Source of the DNA: Rikenellaceae bacterium
GTDB taxonomy: Bacteria > Bacteroidota > Bacteroidia > Bacteroidales > Rikenellaceae
NCBI GenBank assembly: GCA_020859685.1
Contig: JAJBVT010000053.1
Location: forward strand, 11,809 to 75,808
DNA length: 64,000 bases
Direction of reading: 5' to 3'
The first letter of the stretch is position 1, and every line of letters starts with the position of its first letter. Of the stretch, positions 3,759-59,855 are shown in pieces. Made by a program: the position numbers and the translations under genes. Below the pieces are notes generated by a model. That model worked only from the letters and a program-made list of their open reading frames with translations, searched no databases and was not told where the DNA came from.

Positions 3759-3952
3759 AGCATATTATCTTATATGGTCGGAAAGAGGCCGGATTACAGA
3801 AATCCAATCCCTATCCACCGGCTTCGGTTTAACCCTGATACAACCCTTATGCCGTTAATATATGATTTAACCCGGTTAACACGGTAAGCCGGAGTAAATA
3901 TCAGGGAAAAAGGCTCGCCTTCATCTCACAAAACCCGATAAGCGATAGGTAC

Positions 3953-3984
3953 AAAAAAATACGGGGACCCTCCCGGGCACCCGT
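3953..3984 (-). terminator. Intrinsic terminator closing fimbrial operon 1
   Basis: GC-rich imperfect hairpin ACGGGGACCC-TCCC-GGGCACCCGT (3961-3984). On the minus strand it is followed by a U-run (plus-strand A-run 3953-3960). Confidence 0.6.
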
Positions 3985-4075
3985 ATCTCAACCAATTTTT
4001 AAATGAAAATCAAATTTTTTACATAAAATATTAATAATCAACACTCTTTGCAACTACCCCTAGTACGCAGAGTGT
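3953..4075 (-). ncRNA. Conserved structured 3-prime element, copy 1 of 3 (putative 3-prime-UTR RNA or sRNA)
   Basis: Begins 16 nt after the stop of the 4091-7156 gene. Stem ACACTCT..GC/GCAGAGTGT (4041-4075) encloses the invariant ACTACCCCTAG (4053-4063). Then an AT-rich spacer, TCAACCA (3988-3994) and the terminator. The same layout recurs at 23648-23775 and 52992-53134. Confidence 0.45.
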
Positions 4076-4090
4076 TTTACCTTAGGGTCG

Positions 4091-7000
4091 TCAATAAGCC
4101 GTTACCACGTCGGGAGCGTACCCTCCGCTGTCGATCTGCTGCTGCTCGCCGCTGTCGGGGAACCGTACGCACCGCGTTTTTATATAATAGGGCAGATTTG
4201 TATCCGGCCGTCTCATCGCGTTAGGTTTATACTTATACACCAACTCCCACCTGTTTTCAAATATCTGCACCGTCGACATGTAATCCGTAAAGTAGGAGGG
4301 CATAAAGGTCCAGTATTCCGTGCCGTTGGCCAGCCCGAGTGCCGTATCGCGCTCCTGCGATTTTATCTCCACGAACAGTTTGGCCTCACCGGTATACTCG
4401 TTGCGGCCGTCGCCCCAGAGGTACCATTTTCCCTGCCCACGCACGGGGTCGGACGGATCGCTCCCCTCGTAATACGCCGCACATCCTCCGTTGCTGACGT
4501 CGTAGGTGGGATAGCCGGAAGTGTAATCGTAGAGGTTACCCTGGTCATCGGCATAAATCGCCGTATCGTACCCATGGATCCCCATGGCGGTACTCCAGGA
4601 CATATAATAGGTTTCGAACGGAACAGTGACCATCCCTGTCGTTAAATACTGTGTTTCGAACAGGCAGTCTTCACGGGCCAGAATCCTTCCGGTTTCGGGC
4701 ATCTCGAAGGCAATGGACGGCTGCACATAGGTGGCTATGTTCCCCGAAGCGTTATTCGACTGCTCATAGGCCCATGCTTCCCAACCGTTGTTTACCAGCC
4801 TTCGGTACGATATGGGTACATTACGCGAAAGTATGGTTCGGTTGTACCTGCACAGCAATTCAGTGGCTGTATTGGCGGACACCCAATCGGCGTTCCTGTC
4901 GACCTGCACGTCCTGCGGTCCGAGCCTGACCTCGACCGTTCCGTCGTCGAAATCTCCGGCCACCGTTACCACCACCCTCGCTCCGTCATGTGATATATCG
5001 TTCCTTTCGGTCGTACCGGGATGGTAGATTTTATGAGTAATGCCGTCTATCCGGTAAAAGCCTATCTGTGTGGCCGTCCTCAGGGTGGCCCATGCGGTCC
5101 CGTCGGTCGACCATTGCAAGGCGACACTGCGCGAAGGCTGGTCGTCCCACTGACCGTAGGCCTTTACCGGAACGGAGAGGGTTTGTGTCACCCCGTCGTT
5201 GGCGGCAGGTATCGACAACGGGTCGGTGAGCACCTCGAGCGTACCGACGCTGATGGCCCGGATATAAATTTGCGGCCAGGCACTCCCTGCCACGGTGACG
5301 GAATAGTCAGCCGTTCCCGGCTTTGGCGGTATCGCGCCTCCTTCGGCAAGGTCGGTGCTGATTTCGTATCCGTAACCGGACTGTATATCTTCCCGGAAGA
5401 CGATCCATTTCGAGGTTGCCGGGTCCTCATATTCGAAAACAAGGCTTCGGTCCTCGTCGCTGTCCCGTGCCGGTATGGTAAGGGTAGCGGTACTCGGCAG
5501 GCCTCCGGGCGAGTTGGAGGGCACCGAAGCGGCGTCGATGGCCGTGCTCTCGTACCGGTCCCTTACCCTTACGGGTATATTTGCGGTGAACATACCGGTG
5601 ACTGTTACCGTCCGGGTCTGCCCAGTGGAGGGAATATCCCCGGTGGGGGTGACGGTGGGGAGTTCGATTCCGCCCTGCGATTCCTGCTCTATGGCTACCA
5701 CCACCTCCACTCCGGCCGAGATATGGAGGTATGCCCGGCGGACGGTGAGTCCGCTATTGACCTCTACGGTGTAATTCAGCTCCTGCCCGGTGGAAGGGAG
5801 GGTGGTATTCACCGTTACCCAATCGCACGGGATGTCCGGGTCGGTTTCCGAATCGGAAACTTTAATGCTCCAGCCCGCAGTGTAGTTTGTTTTGATTTTC
5901 AGCGAAGTGGTCCACGGCGAGGCGCTGTAAGGAAGGCGTGTTATTTTTTCGGACAACGCAACGTAGTAGTGTCCGTCCGATATATAGTAGTGCATCTCCG
6001 CGTCATGGTCGACCACCAGCACCACACCGGTATTCTCGGGACCGGCCCCGGCCGCAATATCCGCCGTGGCGTATCCCGCACGGGAAATGCTGTTCACCGT
6101 GAAACCGTAAGTGTGGTTGCGCAGCAGCGGCAGGTACTCGTAATCGCCGGAGGAGTTCGTCGCCGCGATATCCACACGGTAATAGGTAACCGTGCTGCTG
6201 CCGTCGTACAGCCCACCGATTACGAGGTAGGTGTTGTCCGGCCCCGCGGTGGCGTCCCCGGCCGGGGTTTCGAAGGTGTATATTTCGTTGACACACGATT
6301 TGTCGGCGACCTCCGCATCGTCATACTTATAGACAATTGGCTGGCTTACCCGGCCCCAACCGGAGGTTATATGCGGCGCGGTGGCCTTACCCACGGCGGG
6401 GTCTGTGGCCGACGCCCCGGAGGGTTTCCATGTGGCGTCCCAACCTGCCGCTGCGGGAATCGCCGCCCCGCGGTCGGCCGCGTTATAAAGGTGCACCTCC
6501 CTGAGCAGGAAGTTGTCGGCGGCGACATTCACGTTAATGCGCGCGAGCATCCTGTGCATCGTTACGTCCTCGATAACGGTCTGCTTCTCCACCGCACGGC
6601 CCGTTTCCTCGCCCCACATCGGTATTGGGGCGGGAGTTGCAGCATCCCATTTTTGTGAGGATACCACTACGAGACCGCTCGCCAAATCGTTCTTGGTGAA
6701 GGTATTGGAGCCCATACCCGTAACGAAAGCCTCCACCGTGGTGCGCAGATTGGCTATTATGACTATATCGCACGAGGCGGTCTCTTCGAGCCGGGCGGTG
6801 AAACGGTAATCGTTGCCGGATTCGGGGTCGGCGGTTATGGTTTTGGCTTCGGCACGGTACAGGAAATTCCCACCGGAGGGGCCGAACACCAGCACATCGA
6901 CCTCCGTCACCAATCCTTCCTGTGCCGCGGTCATAGCCCGGGTACCGGGGATGGCCGTTTCGGGCGTACCGGTCTGCGGAACCTTTATTTCGAAAGTTAC

Positions 7001-7156
7001 GAATCCATCCTCTTCCGGCAGGGTTTCATCCCCGTAATTATCGCCCTTGATGCAACCCGAAAGATTCATCAGAATACCGGCAAACAGAACGCAAAGCACT
7101 GCCGGCCATCCCTGCCAGCCTGCCGCTCTACTCCTGTATGTACACAATCCGGTCAT
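4091..7156 (-). CDS. Fimbrial tip/accessory adhesin-like lipoprotein (fimbrillin-like N-terminus, BACON-like Ig region, DUF1566-like lectin C-terminus)
   Basis: 1021 aa with lipobox LSGC. N-terminal fimbrillin-like segments (VDVLVFG.., IVIIANL.., PMWGE). BACON-like CDWVTV...RRAYLHISAG...IEQ. C-terminal GGCAAYYEG...TRCVRF. Last gene of an operon of Mfa-type genes. Confidence 0.6.
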   Translation of the reverse strand: MTGLCTYRSRAAGWQGWPAVLCVLFAGILMNLSGCIKGDNYGDETLPEEDGFVTFEIKVPQTGTPETAIPGTRAMTAAQEGLVTEVDVLVFGPSGGNFLYRAEAKTITADPESGNDYRFTARLEETASCDIVIIANLRTTVEAFVTGMGSNTFTKNDLASGLVVVSSQKWDAATPAPIPMWGEETGRAVEKQTVIEDVTMHRMLARINVNVAADNFLLREVHLYNAADRGAAIPAAAGWDATWKPSGASATDPAVGKATAPHITSGWGRVSQPIVYKYDDAEVADKSCVNEIYTFETPAGDATAGPDNTYLVIGGLYDGSSTVTYYRVDIAATNSSGDYEYLPLLRNHTYGFTVNSISRAGYATADIAAGAGPENTGVVLVVDHDAEMHYYISDGHYYVALSEKITRLPYSASPWTTSLKIKTNYTAGWSIKVSDSETDPDIPCDWVTVNTTLPSTGQELNYTVEVNSGLTVRRAYLHISAGVEVVVAIEQESQGGIELPTVTPTGDIPSTGQTRTVTVTGMFTANIPVRVRDRYESTAIDAASVPSNSPGGLPSTATLTIPARDSDEDRSLVFEYEDPATSKWIVFREDIQSGYGYEISTDLAEGGAIPPKPGTADYSVTVAGSAWPQIYIRAISVGTLEVLTDPLSIPAANDGVTQTLSVPVKAYGQWDDQPSRSVALQWSTDGTAWATLRTATQIGFYRIDGITHKIYHPGTTERNDISHDGARVVVTVAGDFDDGTVEVRLGPQDVQVDRNADWVSANTATELLCRYNRTILSRNVPISYRRLVNNGWEAWAYEQSNNASGNIATYVQPSIAFEMPETGRILAREDCLFETQYLTTGMVTVPFETYYMSWSTAMGIHGYDTAIYADDQGNLYDYTSGYPTYDVSNGGCAAYYEGSDPSDPVRGQGKWYLWGDGRNEYTGEAKLFVEIKSQERDTALGLANGTEYWTFMPSYFTDYMSTVQIFENRWELVYKYKPNAMRRPDTNLPYYIKTRCVRFPDSGEQQQIDSGGYAPDVVTAY

Positions 7157-7164
7157 TCTATTAT

Positions 7165-10068
7165 TTATTTTTCCCTTACGCAGCGGGCGCGCTTACTGTT
7201 GGTGCTTCTGACATTATCATTCCATCCTTTATATTCGAGGTCGAGAACCCATGAGCGATAACTGTTACTAGAAAATACTTCGCTGTTACTCCAGTAATCC
7301 CATGGGTAAGCGTATGCGATTTTGCCAAGCTCGATAAAACGCTGGCCCATTTCATAAGTCTCCTCTACTGTCGGAATGTAAAAATTTTTGGTCGTACCGT
7401 CTTCGGTATATGCGGCACATCCCCCGTTAGCGGCACTGTACGTTTCGGTATAGTAAAGAGTAGGAGATCTCTTGGCTTGCAGGGGGTATGGACCGTGAGA
7501 AGTGCTATATGTATAACCGTCCGCCGAGGCACCTGCCTGCTGGTAGGTTTCGGTGTTGTATTTGGAGTCTATCCCCATTGCGGTCGCCCAGAGCATGATC
7601 TCTACCCCGTCGTCTCCGACCCTGCCGTTAGGCCCGGCATCCTCGATTGCGACCACACGGCCGGTGGAGAGAGTCACATATCCGAGTTGCTTAATCGTGG
7701 CCATATTCACGTCGGTCCAAGTCGACTCCGCCACACCGTCGATATAACGGCGGTACTGGCATTTTATATCCCTGTGACCCGCGTCAGAACCGTATGTCCC
7801 CGAATAGTTGTAGTTGCTTAGTATAGTCAGGTTCACGGCCATGGCCGAAATATCAGTAATATCCGGGCTTGTGGACGATACCACCGTGGCCCCGTCCGAG
7901 GTTACCGCCCTCACCTGTACCCATCCGGCGGAATAACTTCCGGTTACTGTCACGGTCAGGTCGCCGCCGTAAGGCAGAAATGCCCGGATGGTGAGGTTCT
8001 CCCCGTTCTCGATGGCCGGATCCGACGATGAGGACCCCGTAATTTCGTAGTCCCCCCACTGGTTGCCGTAATTCAGGACCGTAGCGGACGTCCAGTCCGT
8101 ACCGCTTCTCGACCATTGCAGCTCCACCACGCGGGCGGCCTGGTCTTTCCACTGCTCGAAGGTCCCTATGGTTATCGACTGCTGCACGGAGCCCGCGCCA
8201 GCCGGAATAGTTATCGGACCCGCGACCACGGTACCGGTTCCCCGTATCACTCCGCGGACGTAAAGCTCCGGCCAGCCGGTACCGGTGACGTTTATGTTAT
8301 AGGTCTGGTCTCGGGCGGCAATCGTACTGTTGTCCGTCAGGGTGGAGGCGACGTCGAAATCGAACCCCTCCTGAGTGGCCTGCATGATGGCGACCCAACT
8401 CCCGCTGGTTTTGTCGTAATACCTGAACTCGATAACCCTCGGTATATCCTGCGACCAGCCGGGAATGGTTACGGTCACGGAAGACGGGTTGCCCGTAGTG
8501 TAATTGGCGGGGATAAATGAATTGGCCGCGGCCTGTGTGATTTCCGTGTCGTTTGTCAGGTCCCATACCTGTACGGGAATATCGTCGAACAGACCCGTGG
8601 CACGGATTACGCGGTCCTCTCCGTCGCCGGAGATATTTCCCGTCGGAGTGACCGATATACTTTCCAGATAGAGCTGCGCCTGGTCTATGCGTACGGCCAC
8701 CGCAAAACTCCCGGCCCTGATATGGATATATCCGACCCGGTGAATCCACTGGTCGGTCACGGCGACCGAGTAGTTTAGCGCGGTTCCCGTGGGAGAACCG
8801 TCCGCCGTAAGCCAGGTGCATGGAACGTCCAGCTCCGTTTCGGAACCGGAGACCGTAGCGGTACAACCGCCCGGGAAATTAGTGTCCACCGTAACGGTTC
8901 CCGTCCCTCCGAGTATATCGTAAGACGCGGAGGTGGGGTCTACCCATATCCAGTACTGGCCGTCGATATCGAATACCTCGTCCGCACCTTCGTTCCACGG
9001 AATCACATCGGCATAGATATCCGCATCCGTGGCCTCTTCCTCCCCGGTACCGGGTCCCGAGACCTTGTAGATATTGAATATAAAGTTGTGGTTGCGAAGT
9101 ATGTCCCACTGCTTGCCGTCGCGGTCGATGAACGGAAGCCTGTACCATGTAACCTCGCCGGAGTTGTCATAGATGCCCGCAATAAGCAGCCAGGTCCGGT
9201 CCTCCTCGTCTATGCCGGAAGCGGTATTGCTCCGCTCGCCGATATAAATACCGTCGGTTATCGTCACCCCGTCGGATGAGGCGTAATAGGCGTTATCGTA
9301 AACCACACCCGTGGGAACGGTAGGGCTCGTCGCTTTGACGCTGCCGGCCGAGGACGTCTCAATATTATCGGGGTCGGGAATAGCGTATCCGCTGTCGACC
9401 GTGTTGTATATCGCCACGTCCACAAGTTCGAAATCCTTCTGGTCGGGGTCGCTCCTGTCGAGGTTTATCAGTACCGTTACCGCGGCAAGCGACCGAAGCA
9501 TATATATTGTGCCGAGGTCGGTCACTTCCTCCACGATGGCGACCGGCCCGTACTCTCCCCACATGGGCAGGGGCCTGTCGGCGCCGTATTGTCCGGAAAC
9601 TTCATTGGAGGGGTTATGGGTTGGGTCGTAGCTCGTCCGGTGGACGAACTCGATAGTAAGAAGGTCGCGTAACTGTGCGACCGTGGTACTCCCCGAGGTG
9701 AGGATGGTCGCGTCGAGTTCGTCTTTGAGGTTGGCGAGGACGACCAGAACCTGCTCCTGGCTTCCGCTTTTGCTCAGGGTTATATCGAACCATTCGTTCG
9801 AGGAGTCGATAACGCTCGCCGAGGAGCGGTATTGGAACGTTCCGGCGTCGGCGCTGAAAGAGAGAACGTCTATGGTCTGTATGAACGTGTCGGCGAAACC
9901 GCGTGTAGATACGGAAGGATTGCCCGGTACGCGGATGTGCATCCGCACCACCTGACTGTCCGGATCGACAGGCGCCACATCGTAGCTACCATCCTTAATA
10001 CACGCGGCCATGATAACGACCGTTAAGGATAGGCAGAGAAAGCCTGTGATATTCGACATCCTGTTCAT
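7165..10068 (-). CDS. Fimbrial tip/accessory adhesin-like lipoprotein, tandem paralog of 4091-7156
   Basis: 967 aa with lipobox MAAC. Same architecture as its neighbour (IDVLSF.., LVVLANL.., PMWGE, BACON-like CTWLTA...RVGYIHIRAG..IDQ, C-terminal GGCAAYTE...RARCVREK). Confidence 0.6.
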   Translation of the reverse strand: MNRMSNITGFLCLSLTVVIMAACIKDGSYDVAPVDPDSQVVRMHIRVPGNPSVSTRGFADTFIQTIDVLSFSADAGTFQYRSSASVIDSSNEWFDITLSKSGSQEQVLVVLANLKDELDATILTSGSTTVAQLRDLLTIEFVHRTSYDPTHNPSNEVSGQYGADRPLPMWGEYGPVAIVEEVTDLGTIYMLRSLAAVTVLINLDRSDPDQKDFELVDVAIYNTVDSGYAIPDPDNIETSSAGSVKATSPTVPTGVVYDNAYYASSDGVTITDGIYIGERSNTASGIDEEDRTWLLIAGIYDNSGEVTWYRLPFIDRDGKQWDILRNHNFIFNIYKVSGPGTGEEEATDADIYADVIPWNEGADEVFDIDGQYWIWVDPTSASYDILGGTGTVTVDTNFPGGCTATVSGSETELDVPCTWLTADGSPTGTALNYSVAVTDQWIHRVGYIHIRAGSFAVAVRIDQAQLYLESISVTPTGNISGDGEDRVIRATGLFDDIPVQVWDLTNDTEITQAAANSFIPANYTTGNPSSVTVTIPGWSQDIPRVIEFRYYDKTSGSWVAIMQATQEGFDFDVASTLTDNSTIAARDQTYNINVTGTGWPELYVRGVIRGTGTVVAGPITIPAGAGSVQQSITIGTFEQWKDQAARVVELQWSRSGTDWTSATVLNYGNQWGDYEITGSSSSDPAIENGENLTIRAFLPYGGDLTVTVTGSYSAGWVQVRAVTSDGATVVSSTSPDITDISAMAVNLTILSNYNYSGTYGSDAGHRDIKCQYRRYIDGVAESTWTDVNMATIKQLGYVTLSTGRVVAIEDAGPNGRVGDDGVEIMLWATAMGIDSKYNTETYQQAGASADGYTYSTSHGPYPLQAKRSPTLYYTETYSAANGGCAAYTEDGTTKNFYIPTVEETYEMGQRFIELGKIAYAYPWDYWSNSEVFSSNSYRSWVLDLEYKGWNDNVRSTNSKRARCVREK

Positions 10069-10086
10069 TTCTGCACTTGGTCTCTT

Positions 10087-11025
10087 TTATAATTCTCCCG
10101 GCATACTGCTGCCGTCCCAATCCTTAATACTGTTGCCGACAAAAATCCACCCGCCGTAGCGGTCTGCTTCGTAGTAGAGTTCGTAGATATAGTGTTTGTC
10201 GAGGTCCTCGTCGGTCTCGATATCCTCGTAAGCCTGCAAAATCCGCTCGGTTATTTTATCCTCCGTGCGAACTACGTCGCCTTCGAGGATACGCAGGGTA
10301 AGGTCGTCGCCGATAAACAGACGCTGGAGTTTGAACTCCGCCTGAGCGACGTAGGTGTTTTCTTCGGTGAAGCCCGAATAGGTCGGGATATATGATGCGG
10401 TGGCGTTTCCCGCCGCCGGATTGTTTTCGAAATCATAAACGATGTTGCTTCCTTCCACGGAAACAGTGTAATCGGTACCTTCGATGGTACGGGTAGGCTC
10501 GTCCAGGCCCAGCAATCTGATACGGACGATATGAGTGTCACGGATAAGGGAGATGTCGTAAGTCTTAAACGTACTGTCTACTGTCACAGCATCCATACCG
10601 TGGAACAGGTCGGCGACGCCGGTGTGATTTTCACTCGCCTGTATCGTGAATCCCGTGCGGGTAGTGGCCGACGAGGAGCCGATAACTTCGTACCCCGTGC
10701 CGAAAAGGTTGCCCCATACAACCATTTTATACTCGCCCTCTTCAATATCGAGGTAGAGTGTATTGCCGTCTACCAGCGACGACTGCGGCGTGTCGATATG
10801 GTAGACATAGTTGTCGTACATATCGAAAATGTATAGGTGGACGTCTTCCACAAATTCGCTGAACAGGTCGGTAACCTCTTCAGTATGGTCATGGTGGGTG
10901 AATACGAACCGCAAGGCGACCGGCGGAAGCGTCTCCGGGCAGTCCGAATTATCCTCCTTTAGGCACGATGACAGTCCGGCCGTAAGGGCCAGCAGAGCCG
11001 TGAGCGCTCCTGCGATTTTATTCAT
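10087..11025 (-). CDS. FimB/Mfa2-family fimbrial anchor/terminator subunit
   Basis: 312 aa with lipobox LSSC followed by ..DCP... VHLYIFD motif. Size and position immediately after the major subunit gene fit the family. Confidence 0.7.
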   Translation of the reverse strand: MNKIAGALTALLALTAGLSSCLKEDNSDCPETLPPVALRFVFTHHDHTEEVTDLFSEFVEDVHLYIFDMYDNYVYHIDTPQSSLVDGNTLYLDIEEGEYKMVVWGNLFGTGYEVIGSSSATTRTGFTIQASENHTGVADLFHGMDAVTVDSTFKTYDISLIRDTHIVRIRLLGLDEPTRTIEGTDYTVSVEGSNIVYDFENNPAAGNATASYIPTYSGFTEENTYVAQAEFKLQRLFIGDDLTLRILEGDVVRTEDKITERILQAYEDIETDEDLDKHYIYELYYEADRYGGWIFVGNSIKDWDGSSMPGEL

Positions 11026-11060
11026 GGATTTTTGGCTTTTTCCGTTTACCGGTTTCCCGG

Positions 11061-11085
11061 GGGCCCCGCCCTTAAGCAGGGGCCC
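11061..11085 (-). terminator. GC-rich intercistronic hairpin after the major-subunit gene (possible attenuator or RNA-stability barrier)
   Basis: GGGCCCC...GGGGCCC 7-bp perfect GC stem in the 88-nt gap between the Mfa1-like and Mfa2-like genes. No clear U-run. Confidence 0.3.
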
Positions 11086-11113
11086 TCGGTTCCGGATAAG
11101 TATTTCAGAGTTA

Positions 11114-12481
11114 TTAAAGTTCGCCGGGCATATAAACGCCTTCCCAGTTGAGTACCTGGATAGTTACGTGGATGTATGCATCCGGGTCGAGCGGTTCGGG
11201 ATTCTCCGGCCTTCCGCCGTCTTCCTCGTTCCAGCCGAGGCTGGTCACTTTGGTAATCTCGATATCCCAGTACTGGTTGCGGTGCTGTGAGTATTTGTCC
11301 GCGGTAGTGGTCGGGGGAGTGTTACCCAGGGAGCTGTCGAGGTAGATCCAGTAGTACATCAAACCGCCATCGTATTTGAAAGCCGCTTCGTTGGCGCCGA
11401 GTTGGATTACCGGGTCCCCACTGTAAAGTTTATTGTCGGCAGCCCAGTTCACCAGGTCGCCGTTCGAATCTACGGTACCTATCCTCCAGAAATCGTCACC
11501 GGGATTCCATGTACCGGAAGTCACCAGAGCTCCGTTCGCGTCATACCATACGGTGGGAGAGAACACACCTTTAATCGATGCGTAGGTAGCGTTACCGTAA
11601 CGGGCGGTCATATTACTGTTCTCCATCATATAGGTAGGCTCTTCATGGTTGTAGCTGCCGTCGAGGCCGGTTTTCGACCAGTCGGCCTGAGCCCAGTAGT
11701 TGTTGGCATGCACATCGGCCCAAATGCTGTTGTTCCTGTCGAAATACGGGGTCCTCCAAACACCGGACGCATCATAGGTGGTGAAGAGGTACATCTGGTC
11801 GGGCTGGTTTTTGATACGGTACTCCACGTCCGACATGGTTCCGAGAACCGTCGCTCCGGTGGCGTTCCCGTCGGTTACTTCGATGTCTTCATCGTAGTAA
11901 ACACCTACTTTGGCAACCGACCGACCGAGCTTGATGGTGATGTTGTTGTGGTGGTTCGGAGTTTCAGCCTCGTTCTTGGTCGCGCTTACCACCGTATGCG
12001 AAAGCAGCTCGGAAGCCATCCAGAAAGAGTTGTCGACGGTGAGGGTGTCGTTGAAAGCGACCTCGTCTGCGATGTTCACGATATAGCTTTCGAAATTGGC
12101 GGCCGTCATACCTTTGGTCCACACCGGAGTCATATTCGCGGTAGCGGCGAATATTTTAGGACCGGTGGTGATAAGGGCAGTCTGGCTCAGCACGGAGGGT
12201 GTGAAATTCAGCACGTCTTCGATGGTCTGGGTAGCGACGTCGTAGATGTAGAGGTCGATGGTTGAAACTGTTCCCTCTTCCGTCGTAGGCGCGGTATCAC
12301 CGTGGAACGCGCGGGAGTTTGCGTTGGCGATGCTGATGGTGAACGTAGTGTAGGTCTGTTCTCCCGTTGCCTCGGGTGTGGTTTCATCGGGATCGAGATC
12401 GATGTCTTTGTCACCGCTCTTCGAACAAGCAGCAAGTGTCAGGACAGCCAGAGCTGCCACAAGGGTTGATCTGAAGTTCAT
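11114..12481 (-). CDS. Mfa1-family fimbrial major subunit
   Basis: 455 aa with lipobox LAAC. N-terminal TYTTFTISIANANSRA (Arg-type propeptide site) and IDLYIYD. Paralogous to 59879-61405, including similar C-terminal ends. Confidence 0.7.
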   Translation of the reverse strand: MNFRSTLVAALAVLTLAACSKSGDKDIDLDPDETTPEATGEQTYTTFTISIANANSRAFHGDTAPTTEEGTVSTIDLYIYDVATQTIEDVLNFTPSVLSQTALITTGPKIFAATANMTPVWTKGMTAANFESYIVNIADEVAFNDTLTVDNSFWMASELLSHTVVSATKNEAETPNHHNNITIKLGRSVAKVGVYYDEDIEVTDGNATGATVLGTMSDVEYRIKNQPDQMYLFTTYDASGVWRTPYFDRNNSIWADVHANNYWAQADWSKTGLDGSYNHEEPTYMMENSNMTARYGNATYASIKGVFSPTVWYDANGALVTSGTWNPGDDFWRIGTVDSNGDLVNWAADNKLYSGDPVIQLGANEAAFKYDGGLMYYWIYLDSSLGNTPPTTTADKYSQHRNQYWDIEITKVTSLGWNEEDGGRPENPEPLDPDAYIHVTIQVLNWEGVYMPGEL

Positions 12482-12557
12482 GTTTTAATTGTTTTAAGTG
12501 AAACTTGAGTTGATTGATCTTCTTTTTTGGTTTGGTTAATTACTATTTGGATCTATA

Positions 12558-14231
12558 CTATCTTTTATATCGCTCCATAAGTATTTCGTTTTCCCGTTTG
12601 CATTCCAGCTCTTCGAGATTGTGGGCGGCTTCTTCGGAACCCGCCTCCCGGGCCTGACCCAGATAAAGCGACGCGGTATCCAGGTCCCCCGACAGAAGGT
12701 ACCATACGCCCGTGTTGTTAGCCGCGTCGGGAACGTCCTCCAGCCTGTCGAGGTATCGTCGGGCCGCCGCCATCTCTCCCCGCCGGATAAGCACCGCAGA
12801 GTAGTTGAGCATGGACACGGGGTCGTCGGGATAGAGGCGGATTATGGTCTCGAATATCTGCTCCCACTGCGGCGAACCGTATTCGTAGGATTGCGCCAGC
12901 AGGTAGAGTTCCCTCTGCGACAGCATTTCCGGGTTCCTGTCGGCCAGTTCGCGCGACTCTTCGAGGGTGTAATCCTTTACCGTAAAATCTATCTGGTACT
13001 CAACCCTTCTCAATTGCGGAAACATACCGTCCCTCAGCGTAAGCCATGCCGCGCCGAATCCTTTGAGCCGCTGCTCCTTGCGGTCGGGCTCTCCCGTACT
13101 GTCGATAACTGCCAGAATATCGTCCCGGCGAGCGATATCGCTCTGCTCGACCAACAATCTCAGCCCGTCCCAGTCTTCGGCGACCGAACTGGACCTGATA
13201 ATATTGGCCGGTATGCCGAAGTTCCGGGTTATATAATCCAACAGGGCCTCGGAACGTTCCCGTGCAAGGCGCTCGTTGGTCGCGTAACTCCCGTCCGGTG
13301 AGGCGTAGCCCTCCACGAAGAGCCCTACAATTTCCACATCGCTGTCGGACTGCACCGCTTTGATTGCCGCCTCTATCTTGGAAAGTTCCTCGGGATTACG
13401 GCGGTATGTGGGCACGATTACCGAACGCCCCACGGCGAAATCGAGAAACGCCTGCCCCTGCATCCTCCGGCTTTTCTGCTCCCGCTCCGGCACCACGAAC
13501 GACAATTTGGGCTGAACCTCGTATGGTTCCCGCGGCTGTAATTTCACACGCCCTGCATTTGCGAGGGTATACAACTGCTCTTTCCCGGCCGGTGAGCCCA
13601 CGACCTGATGGATATCGAGAACCGCGTCGTCCATCCACATCCGATAGGGCATCCGCAGGTTGTAGCGCACCAGCGTATCGGTGGAGGTGGTTACCGCAAT
13701 CCTCACGTCGGGAAGATTATCGAGCAGACGGGTGTCCTGAAACTTATAGCGCCGTTTATAAAGCTGCTCCCTCCCCCAGCCGTTTACCATAAGACCGGCT
13801 CCGGTAGCCGTACTGTCCCCGGCGATAAGCTCGGGGATTACGAGCCAGCTCAGCCGCCGGTTCATAACGTCGCCGTCCAGCTTCATCTCGATCTCCATAA
13901 ACAGTTCGTCGTCCTGTTCGGCAATTTCTACCACCGTAACCTTCATCTGCCCGGCGTACTCCGAGCGGTCGACCCTGCGGCGGGATTGATGCCTTTGCAG
14001 AGGAACCGCAAACACGGCCGGGACCGAGAACCTCTGGACAGTCGGACTGCCGGCATCCATTACCTTGAGGTCGCCCAGTTCCATGTGGAGAGAATCGCCC
14101 GACATCCTTATCGTAAAGGATTCTATAACGAATTTACCGTCGTTCAGTTCGATGCGTCCCGTAACCGGCCCGATCTGCGCAAATACGGTGAAGGCGATAA
14201 GTGATAGTATTATGGTATATATATATTTCAT
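12558..14231 (-). CDS. DUF3868-like protein with OmpA-like peptidoglycan-binding domain and C-terminal TPR-like region
   Basis: 557 aa with a signal peptide. OmpA-like block VEIVGLFVEGYASPDGSYATNERLARERSEALLDYI. Sits between the DUF3575 and Mfa1 genes, as in other Bacteroidales fimbrial loci. Confidence 0.65.
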   Translation of the reverse strand: MKYIYTIILSLIAFTVFAQIGPVTGRIELNDGKFVIESFTIRMSGDSLHMELGDLKVMDAGSPTVQRFSVPAVFAVPLQRHQSRRRVDRSEYAGQMKVTVVEIAEQDDELFMEIEMKLDGDVMNRRLSWLVIPELIAGDSTATGAGLMVNGWGREQLYKRRYKFQDTRLLDNLPDVRIAVTTSTDTLVRYNLRMPYRMWMDDAVLDIHQVVGSPAGKEQLYTLANAGRVKLQPREPYEVQPKLSFVVPEREQKSRRMQGQAFLDFAVGRSVIVPTYRRNPEELSKIEAAIKAVQSDSDVEIVGLFVEGYASPDGSYATNERLARERSEALLDYITRNFGIPANIIRSSSVAEDWDGLRLLVEQSDIARRDDILAVIDSTGEPDRKEQRLKGFGAAWLTLRDGMFPQLRRVEYQIDFTVKDYTLEESRELADRNPEMLSQRELYLLAQSYEYGSPQWEQIFETIIRLYPDDPVSMLNYSAVLIRRGEMAAARRYLDRLEDVPDAANNTGVWYLLSGDLDTASLYLGQAREAGSEEAAHNLEELECKRENEILMERYKR

Positions 14232-14270
14232 TATTGTGGGGTATTGATATATGTGGTTTCGTTTCCCGTA

Positions 14271-14858
14271 TTATCTTTTGGATTTTATAAGGTATATAAA
14301 GGACACCCCGACCTTTGTGGGCCCGAACCAGTGTTTGTGGTTCCGCTCGAGAAAGTCGCCGCATTTCCAGCACTCGTACCGGTCGTAATTATAATAGGCA
14401 TAGCCGATTCCGGCCGTAGCCTCGAGGTTCCAGTGCGGGCTGAGGTACCACTGGTAGCCGTAAGAAAAACCGACTCCCGCGCCGTAACCCTCGTAACGGC
14501 TCTCTTTGAGACTGCCCAGCGGTGCAAGGGGTATATTTACACCTCCCGCGTTATAGCTGATGAACATACCGTGGACCCCCAGAAAATGGCCGTCCCATCT
14601 TTCGTAGGGCCAGAAACGTACTTCGGGGCGCACGACCCAATGCTGTATTTTTTTGTTATCCTCCGCAGCACCGAACCGCCACGGATTGTAGGAACCCGAA
14701 ACCTCGAAGCTCGTTTTCCTGCCCAGAGCAATCTCCACTGCCATATTCGGCGTGGTCGTGGCCCAGCCTATGAGATTACTCTTTACGGCAACCTGCTAGC
14801 AGAAACCTGCGAACGGTACTATAATGGGTATAAGGATAGCGGGGATATATTTCTTCAT
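14271..14858 (-). pseudogene. DUF3575-family outer-membrane protein interrupted by one in-frame TAG (codon 21)
   Basis: ATG at 14858 gives MKKYIPAILIPIIVPFAGFC, then TAG (14796-14798), then in the same frame QVAVKSNLIGWATTTPNMAVEIALGRK...YNPW...HWVVRPEVRFW (DUF3575 hallmarks). The track ORF 14271-14744 is only the part after the stop and lacks a signal peptide. Confidence 0.65.
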
Positions 14859-15012
14859 ATTATATAATTCCGGGAGTGAGCCTTGGATTCTCTCACAGTC
14901 TTTACGGGCCTTCGTTATGAAGGACCGCTATTAATTAATATTCTGTTATTATTCTTCAGGTCTTGTATATATACCGTATATGTAATAGTCTCTCGATTTC
15001 GCGGAATAGCTG

Positions 15013-15381
15013 TCAACCGGTGCTGTTTTCCACCAGATTCTTCCATACCTTTTCCGAGCGCATAAAGCCGGGAAAATCATGGCCGGGCCGCCCATCGCAA
15101 TCCTTGAAACAGGGTGCGCACATCACCAGCAGGTCCCACATCGACAGTTCGTAGAACTTCTTTCGAAGGTGCAGCAGCCCTCCAGACTCCGATAGTATAC
15201 CGTAATCGGTAAGCAACGCAAGCGACGTACGTACCATCGGTAACTCACCCTCGGCGAATCCCTTTAACAGGTTGCTCCGTTCTATACCTTTACCCTCTCC
15301 ATCGGCATACATGAAGGATACCACTCCCAAGAGGGTATAAAGGAATTCGAATTGTGGGGTAAACAATACTTCGTCCTTCAT
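15013..15381 (-). CDS. Small conserved protein, first gene behind the invertible promoter (possible winged-helix regulator)
   Basis: 122 aa from the ATG at 15381 (MKDEVLFTPQFEFLYTLLG...). Paralog of 61763-62134 in the same position in locus 2. The longer track ORF (to 15594) would run through the inverted repeat and the promoter. Confidence 0.6.
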   Translation of the reverse strand: MKDEVLFTPQFEFLYTLLGVVSFMYADGEGKGIERSNLLKGFAEGELPMVRTSLALLTDYGILSESGGLLHLRKKFYELSMWDLLVMCAPCFKDCDGRPGHDFPGFMRSEKVWKNLVENSTG

Positions 15382-15418
15382 TTTTCTGCCGTTTCGGAGG
15401 CTTTTTGTTTTACCTGCC

Positions 15419-15435
15419 GTCACTTCGGGAGTGAC
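15419..15435. repeat. Inverted repeat, operon-proximal (switch A)
   Basis: GTCACTTCGGGAGTGAC, the exact reverse complement of 15748-15764. Confidence 0.85.
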
Positions 15436-15466
15436 AATTCGGAAAACATCAATTACTAATCCTGAG

Positions 15467-15474
15467 CAAATGTA
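15467..15474 (-). promoter_or_regulatory. Bacteroides-type -7 box TACATTTG (TAnnTTTG) inside inverton A
   Basis: Plus-strand CAAATGTA. It lies 31 nt from the repeat and reads toward 15381. Homologous boxes sit at the same distance in switches B and C. Confidence 0.55.
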
Positions 15475-15747
15475 AAAAATAATTTCTATTATCGATACAC
15501 CCCTTCGATAAAATTTATATTTTCCGTACGACCTGAATATATAGAACTTATAATTTATTTTAAGAGAATTACTACCCCCGATTAATATATACATCTATAA
15601 ACAATCGATTCTCTTACGCTATTCCTATGCCCTTCCGGGCCCATTATTTTCTTCTGTTCATTACTTTCTGTTTGCCGAATGTTTGGTGAACTCTTCTAAT
15701 AGATACAATCCGTCGCTCTGTTTTACAGGTCGGTACCTATGATTGTT

Positions 15748-15764
15748 GTCACTCCCGAAGTGAC
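15748..15764. repeat. Inverted repeat, recombinase-proximal (switch A)
   Basis: GTCACTCCCGAAGTGAC, separated from the integrase stop by 29 nt. Confidence 0.85.
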
Positions 15765-15793
15765 GCAATCCAGAATCTTTCTTCATTCCGTAA

Positions 15794-17026
15794 TTATGCG
15801 GCCTCGATAAATCTCGAGAGCCGGTTGCTCAGTTCGTCTATTTCGGAGCGTTCGAACGAGGCGAGGTAAATGGAGGTAACTTTCGGGTCGCGGTGCCCGA
15901 GCCCTTCGCCAATCAACATGATACCGTACCCCATTCTTTTAGCTAAAGTCGCCCATGTGTGGCGGGCAACATGCGTGGAAAGGCTGCTTGTTATTCCCGC
16001 CAGCAGGGATATCTCCTTCAACAACCTGTTCTGCCGGTTCAAAGCGGCTTCGTACCCGGATGGATGAGAAACGCCCTCCGCCATTATCGGGAAGACATAC
16101 GGAGACCGGTTTGTCTCTTTTTTGAAATAGCCGATAATCCTCTTCATGGGTTTGGTAATCCTGACCTGCAGAAAAAAACCGGTCTTACGCCTTTTATATC
16201 GGATGGTATCGCCTTTTATATCGGATTTTTTCAGGTGGGCCAGGTCTATGAACGACATACCGCGGGAGTGGTATGCAAACAGGAAATACATCAGTGCGTG
16301 CCGGAGATTCCTTTTTCCCGCGGGAATCTTTTTCCCGAGCGCGACCAGCGAGTTCATTTCCTTTTGGTCGAGCGCCCGTCTTCGGGTCTCGTACACACCG
16401 GTATAAACATCCTCGAAGGGGTTGGATTCACATTTGCGAATCAGGTTCGCCTTAACGGCGCGGTAATATATCGCCCGGATATTTCGCATATAAAAAGAGA
16501 TTGTATTCATCTGGAGGCCATTGTCCAGAAGGTGCCTCTCGAATGCCCTAATCAGTTTGGGGGTTATATCCGACACTTTTAAGTCCTCCGACCCGGCGAA
16601 CGCGGCCAGCTTCTTCGCGGCGCAGCGGTAGGCCCTTGCCGTCCTGTGGCGCTCCTGTTCCTCCAGCTCGCGGCTGAGAAGTGATGAGAACGATAATAAA
16701 TTGTAGGGCGAGAGCGAACCGTTGAATTCATCGACGATATCTCCGAGACCGTACTCCCCCGCAGCGGAAAGTTTCCGCAGGATAGAGGAGAGGCGTTCGA
16801 GGTCGGCGTTCATCATTTCCTCCAATTGCAGAAGGTGCCGGGTCCGCCCGTTTTCCGCATCGCACGGAATAACCAACCTGCGGCGGACAGGGTCCCACTC
16901 TTCGGGGTAGACCGGGTAGCCCCTCCTTAAATCCCGGTATTTACGCCTGAGGATTAACCGGATAAACAGGGTACCCGGTTTGTCCGGCCCATCCGGACTA
17001 CGGAAATGAAATCTGAAACTTGTCAT
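15794..17026 (-). CDS. Tyrosine site-specific recombinase (phage-integrase family), candidate invertase of switch A
   Basis: Catalytic blocks HVARHTWATLAKRMGY and GLGHRDPKVTSIYLA (H-x-x-R, H, Y). Start chosen at MTSFRFHF by alignment with the paralog 62483-63721 (MTSIRFHY). Confidence 0.85.
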   Translation of the reverse strand: MTSFRFHFRSPDGPDKPGTLFIRLILRRKYRDLRRGYPVYPEEWDPVRRRLVIPCDAENGRTRHLLQLEEMMNADLERLSSILRKLSAAGEYGLGDIVDEFNGSLSPYNLLSFSSLLSRELEEQERHRTARAYRCAAKKLAAFAGSEDLKVSDITPKLIRAFERHLLDNGLQMNTISFYMRNIRAIYYRAVKANLIRKCESNPFEDVYTGVYETRRRALDQKEMNSLVALGKKIPAGKRNLRHALMYFLFAYHSRGMSFIDLAHLKKSDIKGDTIRYKRRKTGFFLQVRITKPMKRIIGYFKKETNRSPYVFPIMAEGVSHPSGYEAALNRQNRLLKEISLLAGITSSLSTHVARHTWATLAKRMGYGIMLIGEGLGHRDPKVTSIYLASFERSEIDELSNRLSRFIEAA

Positions 17027-17319: not shown

Positions 17320-17760
17320 ATGGCGGCAATGAAGATAATAACACCTGACGACCAGCTGGGATATCTGCTGGTGCAAACGTCGCTTCTCAAGCAGCGTATC
17401 AACAACGCCATGCTCCGGTCGATGGGATTGACCTACATGCAGTTCGTTATCCTCGCGGGTATTTACGAACTCGGCACCCAATACTCCACCGTTACCCAGC
17501 AGATGCTCGTGGCTAAGCGGAGGCTGGACAAGGCAATGGTGTCCAGTATTCTAGGGAAACTCACCGAGAGAGGGCTCGTCCACAGGGAACCCAATCCTGC
17601 CGACAACAGGTCATGGCTGCTCAATCTTACGCCAAACGGGGAGGAACTTGCCGTGAAGGCCCGTGAAAAGGCCCATGCACTGAACGATAAATTTTTCGAA
17701 CCTGTGAACCAGAGCACCCTCCGGGAAATGCTGAAACGGTTACTTGCGGTAAAATTATAG
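17320..17760 (+). CDS. MarR-family transcriptional regulator
   Basis: 146 aa. Winged-helix region LTYMQFVILAGIYELG...TQQMLVAKRRLDKAMVSSILGKLTERGLVHRE..D.R. Confidence 0.8.
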   Translation: MAAMKIITPDDQLGYLLVQTSLLKQRINNAMLRSMGLTYMQFVILAGIYELGTQYSTVTQQMLVAKRRLDKAMVSSILGKLTERGLVHREPNPADNRSWLLNLTPNGEELAVKAREKAHALNDKFFEPVNQSTLREMLKRLLAVKL

Positions 17761-23558: not shown

Positions 23559-23647
23559 ACCCGAAACGGGGCGCCGGGTAGTAACTCTTTCCGGCCCCTG
23601 TATTATATCAGACATAATCGCCCAGTATCATTCATTATGTATTACAT

Positions 23648-23775
23648 ATAAAAAGCACGGGGGACCTCACGGCCGCCCGTACCGATGTTTCAACCAGATT
23701 CTTCGAATTTGCATTCGAAGACTGTTCAAATAAATATGATATAAATCCCCGGCACTACCCCTAGTGCCACATCAC
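23648..23775 (-). ncRNA. Conserved structured 3-prime element, copy 2 of 3 (orphan; no upstream CDS)
   Basis: Stem GGCAC/GTGCC (23751-23768) around ACTACCCCTAG (23754-23764). TCAACCA at 23690-23696. Hairpin at 23657-23680 followed on the minus strand by a U-run. Lies 94 nt downstream of switch B. Confidence 0.45.
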
Positions 23776-23869
23776 GGGGATACGTTTGGGTTTTTCCCTG
23801 TCGTCCCCATAGGTCCGGAGGAGTACCGCATTTGCGTCCTTTTCAGTTACAAGTTATGTTTCGATAACC

Positions 23870-24169
23870 GTCACTTAAGGAGTGACGGATAGGCAAACAG
23901 AAACCTGTCGGTACAAATGTAAAAATAAAATTTATTTATCTAATCATAACCGCAAAAATCTTAATTTCCGATGCTGTAATCCCATTCGGGGCCAATGCAG
24001 TATTCGTATCTTTAATCACCGTTGCCCCGGACAAATCCAAGAACCGGATTTCCCGTGTAGATATTTGCGGAATGTTTGTTACCGGTTACGTCGGAAGAAA
24101 TTTAAAGTAACTGTTAACCAATAAATTATAGCCGTAGTCAGATTCCAGTATTGTCACTCCTTAAGTGAC
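23870..24169. promoter_or_regulatory. Orphan invertible promoter segment (inverton B)
   Basis: GTCACTTAAGGAGTGAC (23870-23886) and its exact reverse complement GTCACTCCTTAAGTGAC (24153-24169) bracket 266 bp. There is no recombinase gene or fimbrial CDS next to it. Confidence 0.65.
23914..23921 (-). promoter_or_regulatory. -7 box TACATTTG inside inverton B
   Basis: Plus-strand CAAATGTA 27 nt from the left repeat. The surrounding sequence gtacaaatgtaaaaataaaattt resembles gagcaaatgtaaaaaataatttc in switch A. Confidence 0.5.
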
Positions 24170-52901: not shown

Positions 52902-52991
52902 TTCCGCCCGTGAAGATAAATGTTTTTTGCTTAACATTATTTTTTTGCAAACCAATGTAAAATCAGCGACCACCGGAAGTATTAGACGGAT

Positions 52992-53134
52992 AAAAAATAC
53001 GGGGCGCCTCCCGGCGGCCCGTACTTAATTTTTCAACCAAATAATTGCTAATTGATGAAAATCAAACTATATAAAAATAAATATTGAATAAAATTCCCGC
53101 CCGTGCGGCCACTACCCCTAGGGCCGCACCGGGA
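52992..53134 (-). ncRNA. Conserved structured 3-prime element, copy 3 of 3, with intrinsic terminator of fimbrial operon 2
   Basis: Nested stems TCCCG/CGGGA and GTGCGGCC/GGCCGCAC around ACTACCCCTAG (53111-53121). TCAACCA at 53033-53039. Hairpin at 52999-53022 followed on the minus strand by a U-run (52992-52998). Starts 14 nt after the stop of 53148-56093. Confidence 0.45.
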
Positions 53135-53147
53135 GAGATATTGTGTC

Positions 53148-56093: not shown

Positions 56094-56121
56094 ATACTTT
56101 TTAGTATTTGTATCCTTACTA

Positions 56122-58704: not shown

Positions 58705-58716
58705 ATCTGCTTATTT

Positions 58717-59637
58717 TCATCCTATGGGCGTAGGGTCGGTAACGTAGTTCCAGCCGGTAACGGTAATGGTAAGCCCCAATTCGGTGTCGAACGTTAGTTT
58801 GAGGTCGAACTCGAACTCCGTATCGAAATCGACCGCATGTCCGATTCCGGCATAGGCCGTAATTATCATCTCCACCAGATTGCCATTGTAAAGGTTTTGT
58901 CCGGTGGTGATATTTTGCAGTTCGAATACGGGCGAACGGTCTTCCGCGAGGCGGAGGGTCTTGACGGAGGAGGTCAGTTCCCCGTCGGTAAAACCGGCAG
59001 TCCGCAGGTAAACGATATCGTCCATGTTCTCAATAATCGTATTGTCGAATGCGTAGTGGGTATTGTTATCCCTTACCGAGAAAGCGTACACGGCAGCCTG
59101 GTCCACCCCTTCGACGGTAAAATTGACCCGGTAGGTGTTCGGCTTTATTATGATTTCAAAAGTATGGTCTGTTTGAGGCAGGACCTGGGCATCCGTAAGT
59201 ATCCCGTGATGCAGGTCTGGTATTTCTTCCGTAACAATACCATCCGAACGGTATTGCAGGGCGACCACAAGGTCGTCGGCATTCGGAGAATCGGTTACTC
59301 CGGTATATGTTTCCCCCTGATTTGTCCACACCACGAAGTGATATGAACCGGGGTCGAGTTCGAGGTAGGCTTCATAAGTCTCCCCTGAAGTATAAGCACC
59401 TCCGTTCCATGTCCCCACGAAACGTTCATACTGGTCGAATACATATATATACACATTATCTATGTTATAATAACCGCCTTCGGCGCGGGTTACCTCCTCC
59501 AGCGTTCTGACTACAATGTGTACCACCGGTTGGGCGTCGGGACAGTCGTCCGTATTGTCCATGACACACGATGTCAGAGCACAAGTCATGCACAGAGCTA
59601 CGAGAGATAACTTTGCCGCAGTATATAGATATTTCAT
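58717..59637 (-). CDS. FimB/Mfa2-family fimbrial anchor/terminator subunit
   Basis: 306 aa with lipobox LTSC followed by ..DDCPD, a VYIYVFD motif, and paralogy with 10087-11025. Confidence 0.7.
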   Translation of the reverse strand: MKYLYTAAKLSLVALCMTCALTSCVMDNTDDCPDAQPVVHIVVRTLEEVTRAEGGYYNIDNVYIYVFDQYERFVGTWNGGAYTSGETYEAYLELDPGSYHFVVWTNQGETYTGVTDSPNADDLVVALQYRSDGIVTEEIPDLHHGILTDAQVLPQTDHTFEIIIKPNTYRVNFTVEGVDQAAVYAFSVRDNNTHYAFDNTIIENMDDIVYLRTAGFTDGELTSSVKTLRLAEDRSPVFELQNITTGQNLYNGNLVEMIITAYAGIGHAVDFDTEFEFDLKLTFDTELGLTITVTGWNYVTDPTPIG

Positions 59638-59775
59638 GTCATTCGGTTCTTTGTTTACCGGCCGGGCCGGTGGGCTTCGTTCTTCACCCTATACCGTATG
59701 GTAAGGATGTATCGGGATAACTGCGGGATGTACGCGGTTATTCCCGGATTGGCTGTATGACGATTGTCCGTACGG

Positions 59776-59855
59776 TGCTCCCTCCTTTCGGGAGGGAGCG
59801 GACCGCGCGAACGATGGTAGGATTAATCCGGTGCCCGGCCGGTTGCGGCCGGGCA
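59776..59855 (-). terminator. Two GC-rich intercistronic hairpins after the major-subunit gene of locus 2 (possible attenuators)
   Basis: GCTCCCTCC-TTTCG-GGAGGGAGC (59776-59798) and TGCCCGGCC-GGTTGC-GGCCGGGCA (59832-59855), both in the 241-nt gap between the Mfa1-like and Mfa2-like genes. No U-runs. Confidence 0.3.

Follow-up and report, generated by a model that had tools for sequence, protein, structure and literature searches.

In gut Bacteroidales, invertible promoters are numerous and serve pili as well as further surface structures, and a recombinase gene next to an invertible promoter and Mfa/FimA pilus genes is a known arrangement in this order. To our knowledge, the coordination of several such loci is understood for capsules (UpxY/UpxZ) only. 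Recombinase-linked invertible promoters of Mfa1-type pili have been published for Bacteroides fragilis (aap/BF2766) and Phocaeicola vulgatus (BVU2684) (PMC12940148, PMC12632263), and in both species Tsr recombinases flip distant Mfa1/exopolysaccharide (EPS) promoters in trans (PMC12940148). In capsule loci, UpxY and UpxZ are locus-specific regulators encoded at the start of the operon (PMC11685472), and FimR2 is a small RNA (sRNA) from the 3′ untranslated region (3′-UTR) of the phase-variable fim operon of Escherichia coli (PMC9723502). Here we analyse pilus loci in a 64,000-nt stretch of DNA from the Alistipes-like genome of Rikenellaceae bacterium (assembly GCA_020859685.1, contig JAJBVT010000053.1), which as a whole is called the window. 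The explanation that we favour, with moderate confidence, is that it carries two complete paralogous loci for phase-variable type V pili plus one remnant, and that the structured RNA at their 3′ ends is a phase-variable, trans-acting sRNA derived from the 3′-UTR. New here are the family of small proteins encoded by the first gene behind the switch, the recurrent 3′ RNA, and a third switch that is predicted to drive this RNA directly.

An earlier note on this DNA had described a module of five parts, comprising a tyrosine recombinase, an inverted-repeat-flanked promoter, a small paralogous protein, pilus genes and a structured RNA with its terminator. Domains, repeats and folding confirmed all five parts on the minus strand at both loci. 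The count of two modules held for the complete loci and had to be extended by a third inverton and RNA copy at 23643-24169. The parts that carry the argument are the following.

15794-17026, minus strand: tyrosine recombinase of locus 1; its open reading frame (ORF) reaches 17062, and the start at 17026 is the one aligned with the locus 2 paralogue
15418-15765, minus strand: inverton of locus 1, with repeats at 15418-15437 and 15746-15765 and core GTCACT-TCGGG-AGTGAC
15013-15381, minus strand: small protein of locus 1 (122 aa), first gene behind the switch
3947-4078, minus strand: 3′ structured RNA of locus 1 (fold z=-3.8; covariance model 110.9 bits)
62483-63721, minus strand: tyrosine recombinase of locus 2 (Phage_int_SAM_5 and Phage_integrase)
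62160-62479, minus strand: inverton of locus 2, with cores at 62163-62179 and 62459-62475, GTCACT-CTTCA-AGTGAC
61763-62134, minus strand: small protein of locus 2 (123 aa), with a predicted Rrf2-like fold
52985-53137, minus strand: 3′ structured RNA of locus 2 (z=-3.4; 137 bits)
23870-24169, minus strand: orphan inverton, with cores at 23870-23886 and 24153-24169, GTCACT-TTAAG-AGTGAC
23643-23780, minus strand: orphan copy of the 3′ RNA (115 bits; z=-3.1)

The third site has no adjacent recombinase, small-protein or pilus genes, and its neighbours are galE and a rhamnosidase gene. Its -7 box (TACATTTG, 23914-23921) points to the RNA, that is, ON, and a degenerate leader of ~90 nt lies between the inner repeat and the first hairpin of the RNA (P1); this orphan inverton is predicted to drive the RNA directly. 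At the syntenic locus L066, whose rhamnosidase is 82% identical in protein and 80% in nucleotide sequence, promoter and repeat spacer are the same as in the window, and behind them come a degenerate small-protein homologue, 119 codons long, and then the RNA. This homologue retains 28% identity over residues 1-81 and has lost the conserved C-terminal motif. The window orphan has ~270 nt fewer than L066, and the remainder of the small-protein gene is gone. L066 and this further loss of ~270 nt show that the orphan arose from a full module through deletion. This origin is shown by L066 alone, and no homology was found between the orphan leader and the pilus genes or small gene of the window.

Comparison of the two syntenic sites gives our main argument. 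Identity is 84% from promoter to repeat and 75% in the RNA, where P1 shows a compensatory change from GGCA/UGCC to GGCG/CGCC; neither the remainder of the invertible segment nor the leader nor the spacer behind the RNA is alignable. Such islands of conservation suggest that the RNA and its invertible promoter function independently of the pilus genes and of an adjacent small protein. In this natural dissection, one locus has shed first the pilus genes and later the regulator gene, and has retained switch and RNA. Because the RNA was kept under an invertible promoter after both losses, we read it as a probable trans-acting sRNA.

The RNA is ~130 nt long, conserved, and ends in an intrinsic terminator. 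Seven copies were compared, namely the three of the window and those of L066 and of the related loci L001, L002 and L003. When folded individually, all seven present GGGG(UAG) at the apex of P1, on stems whose sequences are all different. MAFFT did not align the P1 stems in register, and covariation in P1 is thus taken from the individual folds and from the orthologous pair. P1 is followed by an AU-rich linker, often with UUUGAUUUUC, by an unpaired UGGUUGA, and by a terminator of the form UACGGG-NNN-CC[GNGA]GG-NNN-CCCGUA with a U-run. In locus 1, the apex reads CUAGGGGUAGU and the linker contains UUUGAUUUUCAU, before the single-stranded UGGUUGA, the GNRA-capped terminator and the U-run. The terminator helix is 98.8% paired, three of its pairs are changed on both sides, and none of 500 shuffles matched its covariation score. 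Folding z-scores of the window copies range from -3.1 to -3.8. The window holds three matches to the terminator motif (0 expected) and three to CTAGGGGTAGT (0.74 expected). A covariance model built from the seven copies and run on 226 kb of the window and loci returned only the known copies, plus a weaker match in L007. In Rfam, nothing reached the gathering score in the window, and a permissive search around the orphan gave chance-level matches only (E>0.5). Every Alistipes-type module with a readable 3′ end has the RNA, and, as in sRNAs of this origin, a conserved structured region lies directly upstream of the operon's intrinsic terminator.

In metagenomes, a scan with a TGGTT-plus-terminator pattern gave no matches, and a relaxed scan with the terminator only gave 45, all unrelated, mostly one soil-lineage terminator and none with GGGGTAG upstream. 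Separately, TACGGGGCGCCGCGAGGCGCCCCGTA was seen near-unchanged in many high-GC soil metagenome contigs (L018, L021, L022, L024, L025 and ~20 further loci), in most cases with a T-rich tail and ...GGGA/GTGA behind it. It resembles a terminator or other element conserved within some soil lineage and is unrelated to the pilus-switch RNA. An ORF opposite the RNA strand (MKIK...) was rejected as coding, as it is not conserved in frame.

The competing explanation that survives best is that the 3′ element is a mere operon terminator with a protective stem-loop, inherited by duplication, and that the orphan is a functionless, decaying relic. We hold this to be a serious possibility, though not a probable one. 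A strong intrinsic terminator closes the element in every case, the element directly follows the last pilus gene in five loci, and the orphan is clearly derived from a full module by deletion; in addition, no trans target has been identified. However, a terminator needs neither the invariant GGGGUAG apical loop nor UGGUUGA, yet both are kept where the proteins are 37-57% identical. A decaying relic also fits poorly with an orphan promoter, repeats and RNA that are kept between strains 20% apart in nucleotide sequence, with the compensatory stem change, whereas their surroundings have diverged or been deleted. Moreover, CUAGGGGUAG is common to all three window copies and L066, whereas L001, the orthologue of locus 2 from another species, has AUCGGGGUAG; co-evolution with a partner common to the copies accounts for this pattern better than neutral descent does.

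The switches, which would make the RNA phase-variable, share a common design. Each repeat is a palindromic core site, GTCACT-N5-AGTGAC, and palindromic cores are expected of crossover sites of tyrosine recombinases. GTCACTN5AGTGAC has six matches in the window against 0.06 expected. The 6-bp arms are identical among the switches, and the 5-nt spacer is unique to each (TCGGG, CTTCA, TTAAG, GTGCA, ...). As in Tsr switches, perfect inverted repeats surround a TAnnTTTG promoter, and recombinases with SAM-like and catalytic domains are encoded at both complete loci, where they adjoin the invertible segments of roughly 300 bp; the orphan lacks a recombinase. In the six related switches compared in promoter orientation, a TA[CA][CT]TTTG box, with AAATTATTTT before it, lies at a fixed distance of 49-56 nt, counted from one repeat's outer end, and fits the Bacteroidetes -7 consensus TAnnTTTG. 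The promoter faces the downstream unit (ON) in locus 1, the orphan and L066, and the recombinase (OFF) in locus 2, L001, L003 and L005b. In locus 1, the repeats of 20 nt are 100% complementary with a spacing of 308 nt (cores 15419-15435 and 15748-15764), and the -7 box TACATTTG at 15467-15474 points to the operon. In locus 2, the box TACCTTTG at 62420-62427 on the plus strand points to the recombinase.

Further features were seen around the repeats. At locus 2, the recombinase-side repeat and a T-run (62454-62490, plus strand) form a predicted intrinsic terminator for the OFF-state promoter, which would stop antisense transcription into the recombinase gene. In L001 and L003, and more loosely in L005, the operon strand has an A-run immediately before the recombinase-side repeat. 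The operon-side repeat would form a stem-loop in the leader RNA, and a GAAACA/AAAACA motif follows it after 3-10 nt, within the 5′ leader, in every switch. As a candidate internal promoter, TTTGATTTTCAT has no consistent fit to the -33/-7 consensus.

15381-15418, 62134-62160 and 23840-23866: GAAACA/AAAACA motif regions of the window (the motif is also present in L001, L002, L003 and L066)

The small proteins of locus 1 and locus 2 are 37% identical (E=6e-20), and neither they nor their family members match Pfam or NCBIfam. The family is rare: a profile searched exhaustively against 1.84 billion representatives gave only 15 related clusters at 50% identity (E<=1e-10), and the resulting alignment of 16 sequences has its own WDLLxIxEPW motif. 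AlphaFold2 on this alignment gave a predicted local distance difference test (pLDDT) of 86. The top Foldseek matches in the PDB are mostly Rrf2-family proteins (CymR, NsrR, IscR, BC1842, RsrR), with TM 0.6-0.68 and probability 0.9-1.0, and a profile search of PDB sequences with the family gave weak MarR/SlyA matches. No conserved cysteine column is present in the 16-sequence alignment, and the three Cys Fe-S ligands of cluster-binding Rrf2 members are lacking. By predicted fold, the small protein is a Rrf2-like winged helix, and it is not a member of the Rrf2 family. NusG-like NGN/KOW domains, as in UpxY, are not present in it (no Pfam match; winged-helix fold).

Genomic contexts of the small gene were compared at 11 loci (locus 1, locus 2, L001, L002, L003, L004, L005, L007, L008, L062 and L064) from Alistipes/Rikenellaceae plus a few lower-GC Bacteroidales metagenome-assembled genomes. 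In 11 of 11, the small gene comes first behind a recombinase and a GTCACT/AGTGAC inverton, ahead of type V pilus genes. A genome-contig scan with one narrow peptide pattern from the small-protein profile returned only three loci.

The module thus recurs beyond this genome, in 11 independent Alistipes/Rikenellaceae-like loci. The earlier note could not assign the association with the small protein and the RNA to a described system, and neither of the two matches a family in Pfam, NCBIfam or Rfam. The association of the parts, which the note had taken as fixed, turned out to be looser. The window, like L066, has the RNA behind an inverton without recombinase, small protein and pilus genes (23643-24169 in the window), operon a of L005 is an inverton-controlled pilus operon without the small protein, and relatives at a greater distance lack the RNA or have it in reduced form (L005, L007). 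Co-occurrence therefore held in one direction: the small protein is always found with switch and pilus genes, but the switch exists without the small protein. The RNA, for its part, also occurs where pilus genes are missing, but there too an inverton lies in front of it.

Two variants of the arrangement stand beside these. In L005, one recombinase (7959-9224) lies between two invertons (6940-7422 and 9267-9927) with divergent pilus operons, of which operon a, the one lacking the small protein, reads as ON in this assembly and operon b as OFF. Recombinase and small gene are separated in the lower-GC relatives by an AraC-family (HTH_18) gene of opposite strand. The switch of L004 and that of L008 are ~1.2 kb long and enclose this gene, so that inversion would flip the entire regulator gene together with the presumed promoter.

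L004, 611-1850: region of the AraC-family (HTH_18) gene
L008, 1280-2532: region of the AraC-family (HTH_18) gene
L007, 5831-6697: region of the AraC-family (HTH_18) gene

The sequence directly implies that the promoter in the invertible segment, when ON (locus 1, orphan), transcribes the unit behind it, and that when OFF (locus 2) it is directed toward the recombinase and, in locus 2, runs into the predicted repeat-plus-T-run terminator. Shared arms and the published behaviour of Tsr suggest that any recombinase could flip any switch, the orphan included, and the unique 5-nt spacers would prevent recombination between loci. The small protein would be made in the ON phase only, as the first product of the transcript. 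As a dimeric DNA binder with a Rrf2-type winged helix, which its predicted fold suggests, it may report the ON state and act on its own switch or promoter, as a lock or feedback, or on sister loci. The last ~130 nt of the transcript would fold into a hairpin that exposes GGGGUAG(U), with single-stranded UGGUUGA and a terminator capped by GNRA as the other elements, and would most likely be released as a stable 3′-UTR-derived small RNA acting in trans. The hypothesis, then, is that a phase-variable regulatory RNA and a protein couple the pilus loci mutually or to other cell functions. Cross-talk between loci, which the earlier note had suggested by analogy with UpxY/UpxZ, is speculative; its only hint, statistically weak, is a conserved C-rich motif that could pair with the loop of the RNA.

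Candidate partners of the RNA loop were found behind the small gene and in switches. Within 80 nt past the stop codon of the small gene, YUACCC(C/U) occurs in one or two sense-strand copies in four of four loci with the pilin gene directly next, and the other strand of those four stretches has none. ACTACCCC lies on the operon strand in the OFF switches of locus 2 (62319-62326) and L001, and its reverse GGGGTAGT in the ON switch of locus 1 (15571-15578), each ~102 nt upstream of the -7 box. Both ACTACCCC and the YUACCC(C/U) sites are complementary to the GGGGUAGU loop. The C-rich motif is not present in locus 1-type spacers nor in other switches. As partners of the RNA loop, these C-rich sites are a weak lead only, suggested by complementarity.

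61406-61762, minus strand: spacer of locus 2 from the small gene to the pilin gene, with the C-rich motif AACTACCCT at 61756-61762

In the same spacer, an ORF of 43-62 codons with an ATGAATA/ATGTATA start was seen (window 61573-61761, minus strand; also L001, L002 and L003) and is called as a 62-aa gene in L014; its products are proline-rich and little conserved. It was rejected as coding, as the frame is not conserved and the C-rich motif falls in varying frames. Recombinase mRNA was likewise rejected as a target of the loop: CTACCCC near the 5′ ends of the two recombinase genes corresponds to Tyr-Pro codons at non-homologous positions.

A more specific version of our model would make the RNAs a family of phase-variable trans-acting sRNAs whose GGGGUAGU loop pairs with ACUACCCC in the regulator-pilin leader and in sister OFF-switch transcripts. 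Together with the Rrf2-like proteins, these would form a cross-locus circuit that chooses the pilus, and the orphan would be a pure invertible regulatory-RNA switch. This version is speculative, and we think it rather improbable in its full form.

The same motif may also be read as DNA. GGGGTAG(T)/ACTACCCC could be operators for the Rrf2-like protein or for the arm-binding domain of the recombinase, which would connect operon start, switch and operon end through DNA-level looping or roadblock termination instead of an RNA, and we regard this as unlikely. The position of the motif ~102 nt upstream of the -7 box at three switches (locus 1, locus 2 and L001) is in line with operators, as are the one or two copies just past the small gene in locus 2, L001, L002 and L003 and the copy at the operon end. 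In addition, ACTAGGGGTAGT is a small palindrome (ACTA-N4-TAGT), and both the small protein and the recombinase (Arm-DNA-bind_5) are of predicted DNA-binding types. At the 3′ end, however, all copies of the motif cap a hairpin with covarying stems, which indicates a single-stranded RNA context. Moreover, the switches of L003, L005 and the orphan lack it, as does the spacer of locus 1, and the orphan keeps it though the small-protein gene has been lost from that window locus.

Several observations weigh against the trans-acting sRNA that we favour. Duplex energies between loop and sites have a marginal advantage over shuffles (p=0.01-0.15), and the window has no further complementary sites and no convincing RNA target. 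Both the stability and the processing of the RNA are predicted. The covariance-model match in L007 reaches 36 bits and lies after the last pilus gene, with P1 missing, and in L005 the RNA is unrecognisable, with no match to the model. The small protein forms a narrow family and all RNA copies come from one clade, and this shared descent inflates apparent conservation. On the side of the protein, Foldseek E-values for the Rrf2 matches are no better than 0.01-0.3, and Pfam Rrf2 (PF02082) matched none of the 16 family members even at E<=10. Finally, the opposite orientation of the three window switches was not seen in seven other same-strain assemblies (locus 2 was compared in five other assemblies and the orphan in L016, all as in the window). 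Since these assemblies all share one orientation, we infer inversion from how the switches are built and from the occurrence of both states among homologous loci.

It is very improbable that recombinase, 3′ element and all that lies between them make up a mobile cassette with the 3′ element marking an integration or attachment end, as the integrase-type recombinase architecture and the several module copies per genome might suggest, because there are no flanking direct repeats and no common sequence upstream of the recombinase genes, the GTCACT/AGTGAC core sites lie around the promoter and not at the module ends, and the loci occupy different ordinary chromosomal contexts with conserved orphan synteny.

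Both complete loci have the make-up of a type V pilus operon, with stalk pilin, anchor pilin and larger tip or accessory pilins in one operon, and all of their genes lie on the minus strand. Their gene content is unequal, as locus 2 lacks the DUF3575 and OmpA/DUF3868 genes of locus 1.

14271-14858, minus strand: DUF3575 outer-membrane beta-barrel gene of locus 1 (Pfam DUF3575 4e-57, from profile position 36)
12558-14231, minus strand: OmpA-like/DUF3868/TPR protein of locus 1 (Pfam)
11114-12481, minus strand: FimA/Mfa1-like stalk pilin of locus 1 (Fimbrillin_C 2e-10, P_gingi_FimA)
10087-11025, minus strand: Mfa2-like anchor pilin of locus 1 (Mfa2 6e-35)
4091-10068, minus strand: two giant tip/accessory pilin-like proteins of locus 1 (967 aa and 1021 aa)
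53148-61405, minus strand: pilus genes of locus 2 overall
59879-61405, minus strand: FimA-like gene of locus 2
58717-59637, minus strand: Mfa2 gene of locus 2
56122-58704, minus strand: 860-aa pilin-like gene of locus 2, with TGG changed to TAG at 58147-58149, giving ORFs of 185 aa and 668 aa
53148-56093, minus strand: 981-aa tip-like protein of locus 2

The recombinases of the two loci are 57% identical and have arm-binding (Arm-DNA-bind_5 in locus 2), SAM-like and catalytic domains. That of locus 1 matches Pfam Phage_int_SAM_5 (9.7e-17) and Phage_integrase (2.6e-13), and HxxR and the terminal Y motif are readable in its sequence (HVARHTW ... TSIYL). In the 1021-aa protein of locus 1, Pfam shows BACON together with the N-terminal domain of P_gingi_FimA.

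Both complete loci have one TAG-interrupted gene each. In the DUF3575 gene of locus 1, an in-frame TAG (14796-14798) directly follows the signal peptide (MKKYIPAILIPIIVPFAGFC*QVAVKSNL...), and the gene call in another assembly, L015, is truncated likewise. In locus 2, TGG is intact at 58147-58149 in L011 and L013, from other samples, and the stop is common to L010 and L012. Decay, polymorphism or another cause could account for these interruptions. A MarR-family regulator gene (17320-17760, plus strand) lies divergently to the recombinase of locus 1; the module has no such neighbour in other genomes, and the gene is probably unrelated to it.

Alistipes is an abundant, little-studied gut genus with disease links, and the motifs, coordinates and covariance model given here can be used to find the parts elsewhere.

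As in the Tsr systems, a recombinase gene lies here immediately upstream of a short promoter segment of the -7 type, flanked by inverted repeats, that toggles a type V pilus operon, and the recombinase-less orphan switch implies action in trans. Unlike them, the repeats are GTCACT-N5-AGTGAC instead of the published TACTTNNNANGTAANNGAA, the host clade is Rikenellaceae, and two extra conserved parts are present, the first gene with its predicted Rrf2 fold and the 3′ structured RNA, of which we found no description in the literature searched. With UpxY/UpxZ the loci share a paralogous, locus-specific regulator that opens each phase-variable operon and would thus be made only when ON, a plausible basis for hierarchy. 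In contrast to UpxY/UpxZ, the regulator is one protein and not a pair, has no NusG/KOW or UpxZ similarity and is winged-helix and Rrf2-like by predicted fold; cross-inhibition by it would be hypothetical.

Like the Rrf2 factors IscR, NsrR, CymR and RsrR, the small protein has a predicted N-terminal winged helix and dimerisation helix and a size of ~120-150 aa, but it lacks sequence membership and conserved cysteine ligands and has the WDLLxIxEPW motif of its own. In Enterobacteria, small DNA-binding regulators that are encoded within one fimbrial operon, namely PapB/FocB, which act on the fim switch, and MrpJ and PapX, affect other surface loci or the recombinases of these. These families are unrelated to the small protein; MrpJ and PapX are the last genes of their operons, whereas the small protein is encoded first and its targets are putative.

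We know of no stand-alone sRNA gene under an invertible promoter described before. As with FimR2, a structured RNA lies at the 3′ end of a pilus operon under a tyrosine-recombinase switch, so that its expression would be tied to the ON phase. Unlike FimR2, to which it has no relation in sequence or structure, the RNA belongs to a phylum without Hfq and CsrA, and its role as an sRNA is predicted. It further differs from FimR2 in being paralogous over several loci and in having, in addition, a stand-alone gene that is predicted to be driven by an inverton.

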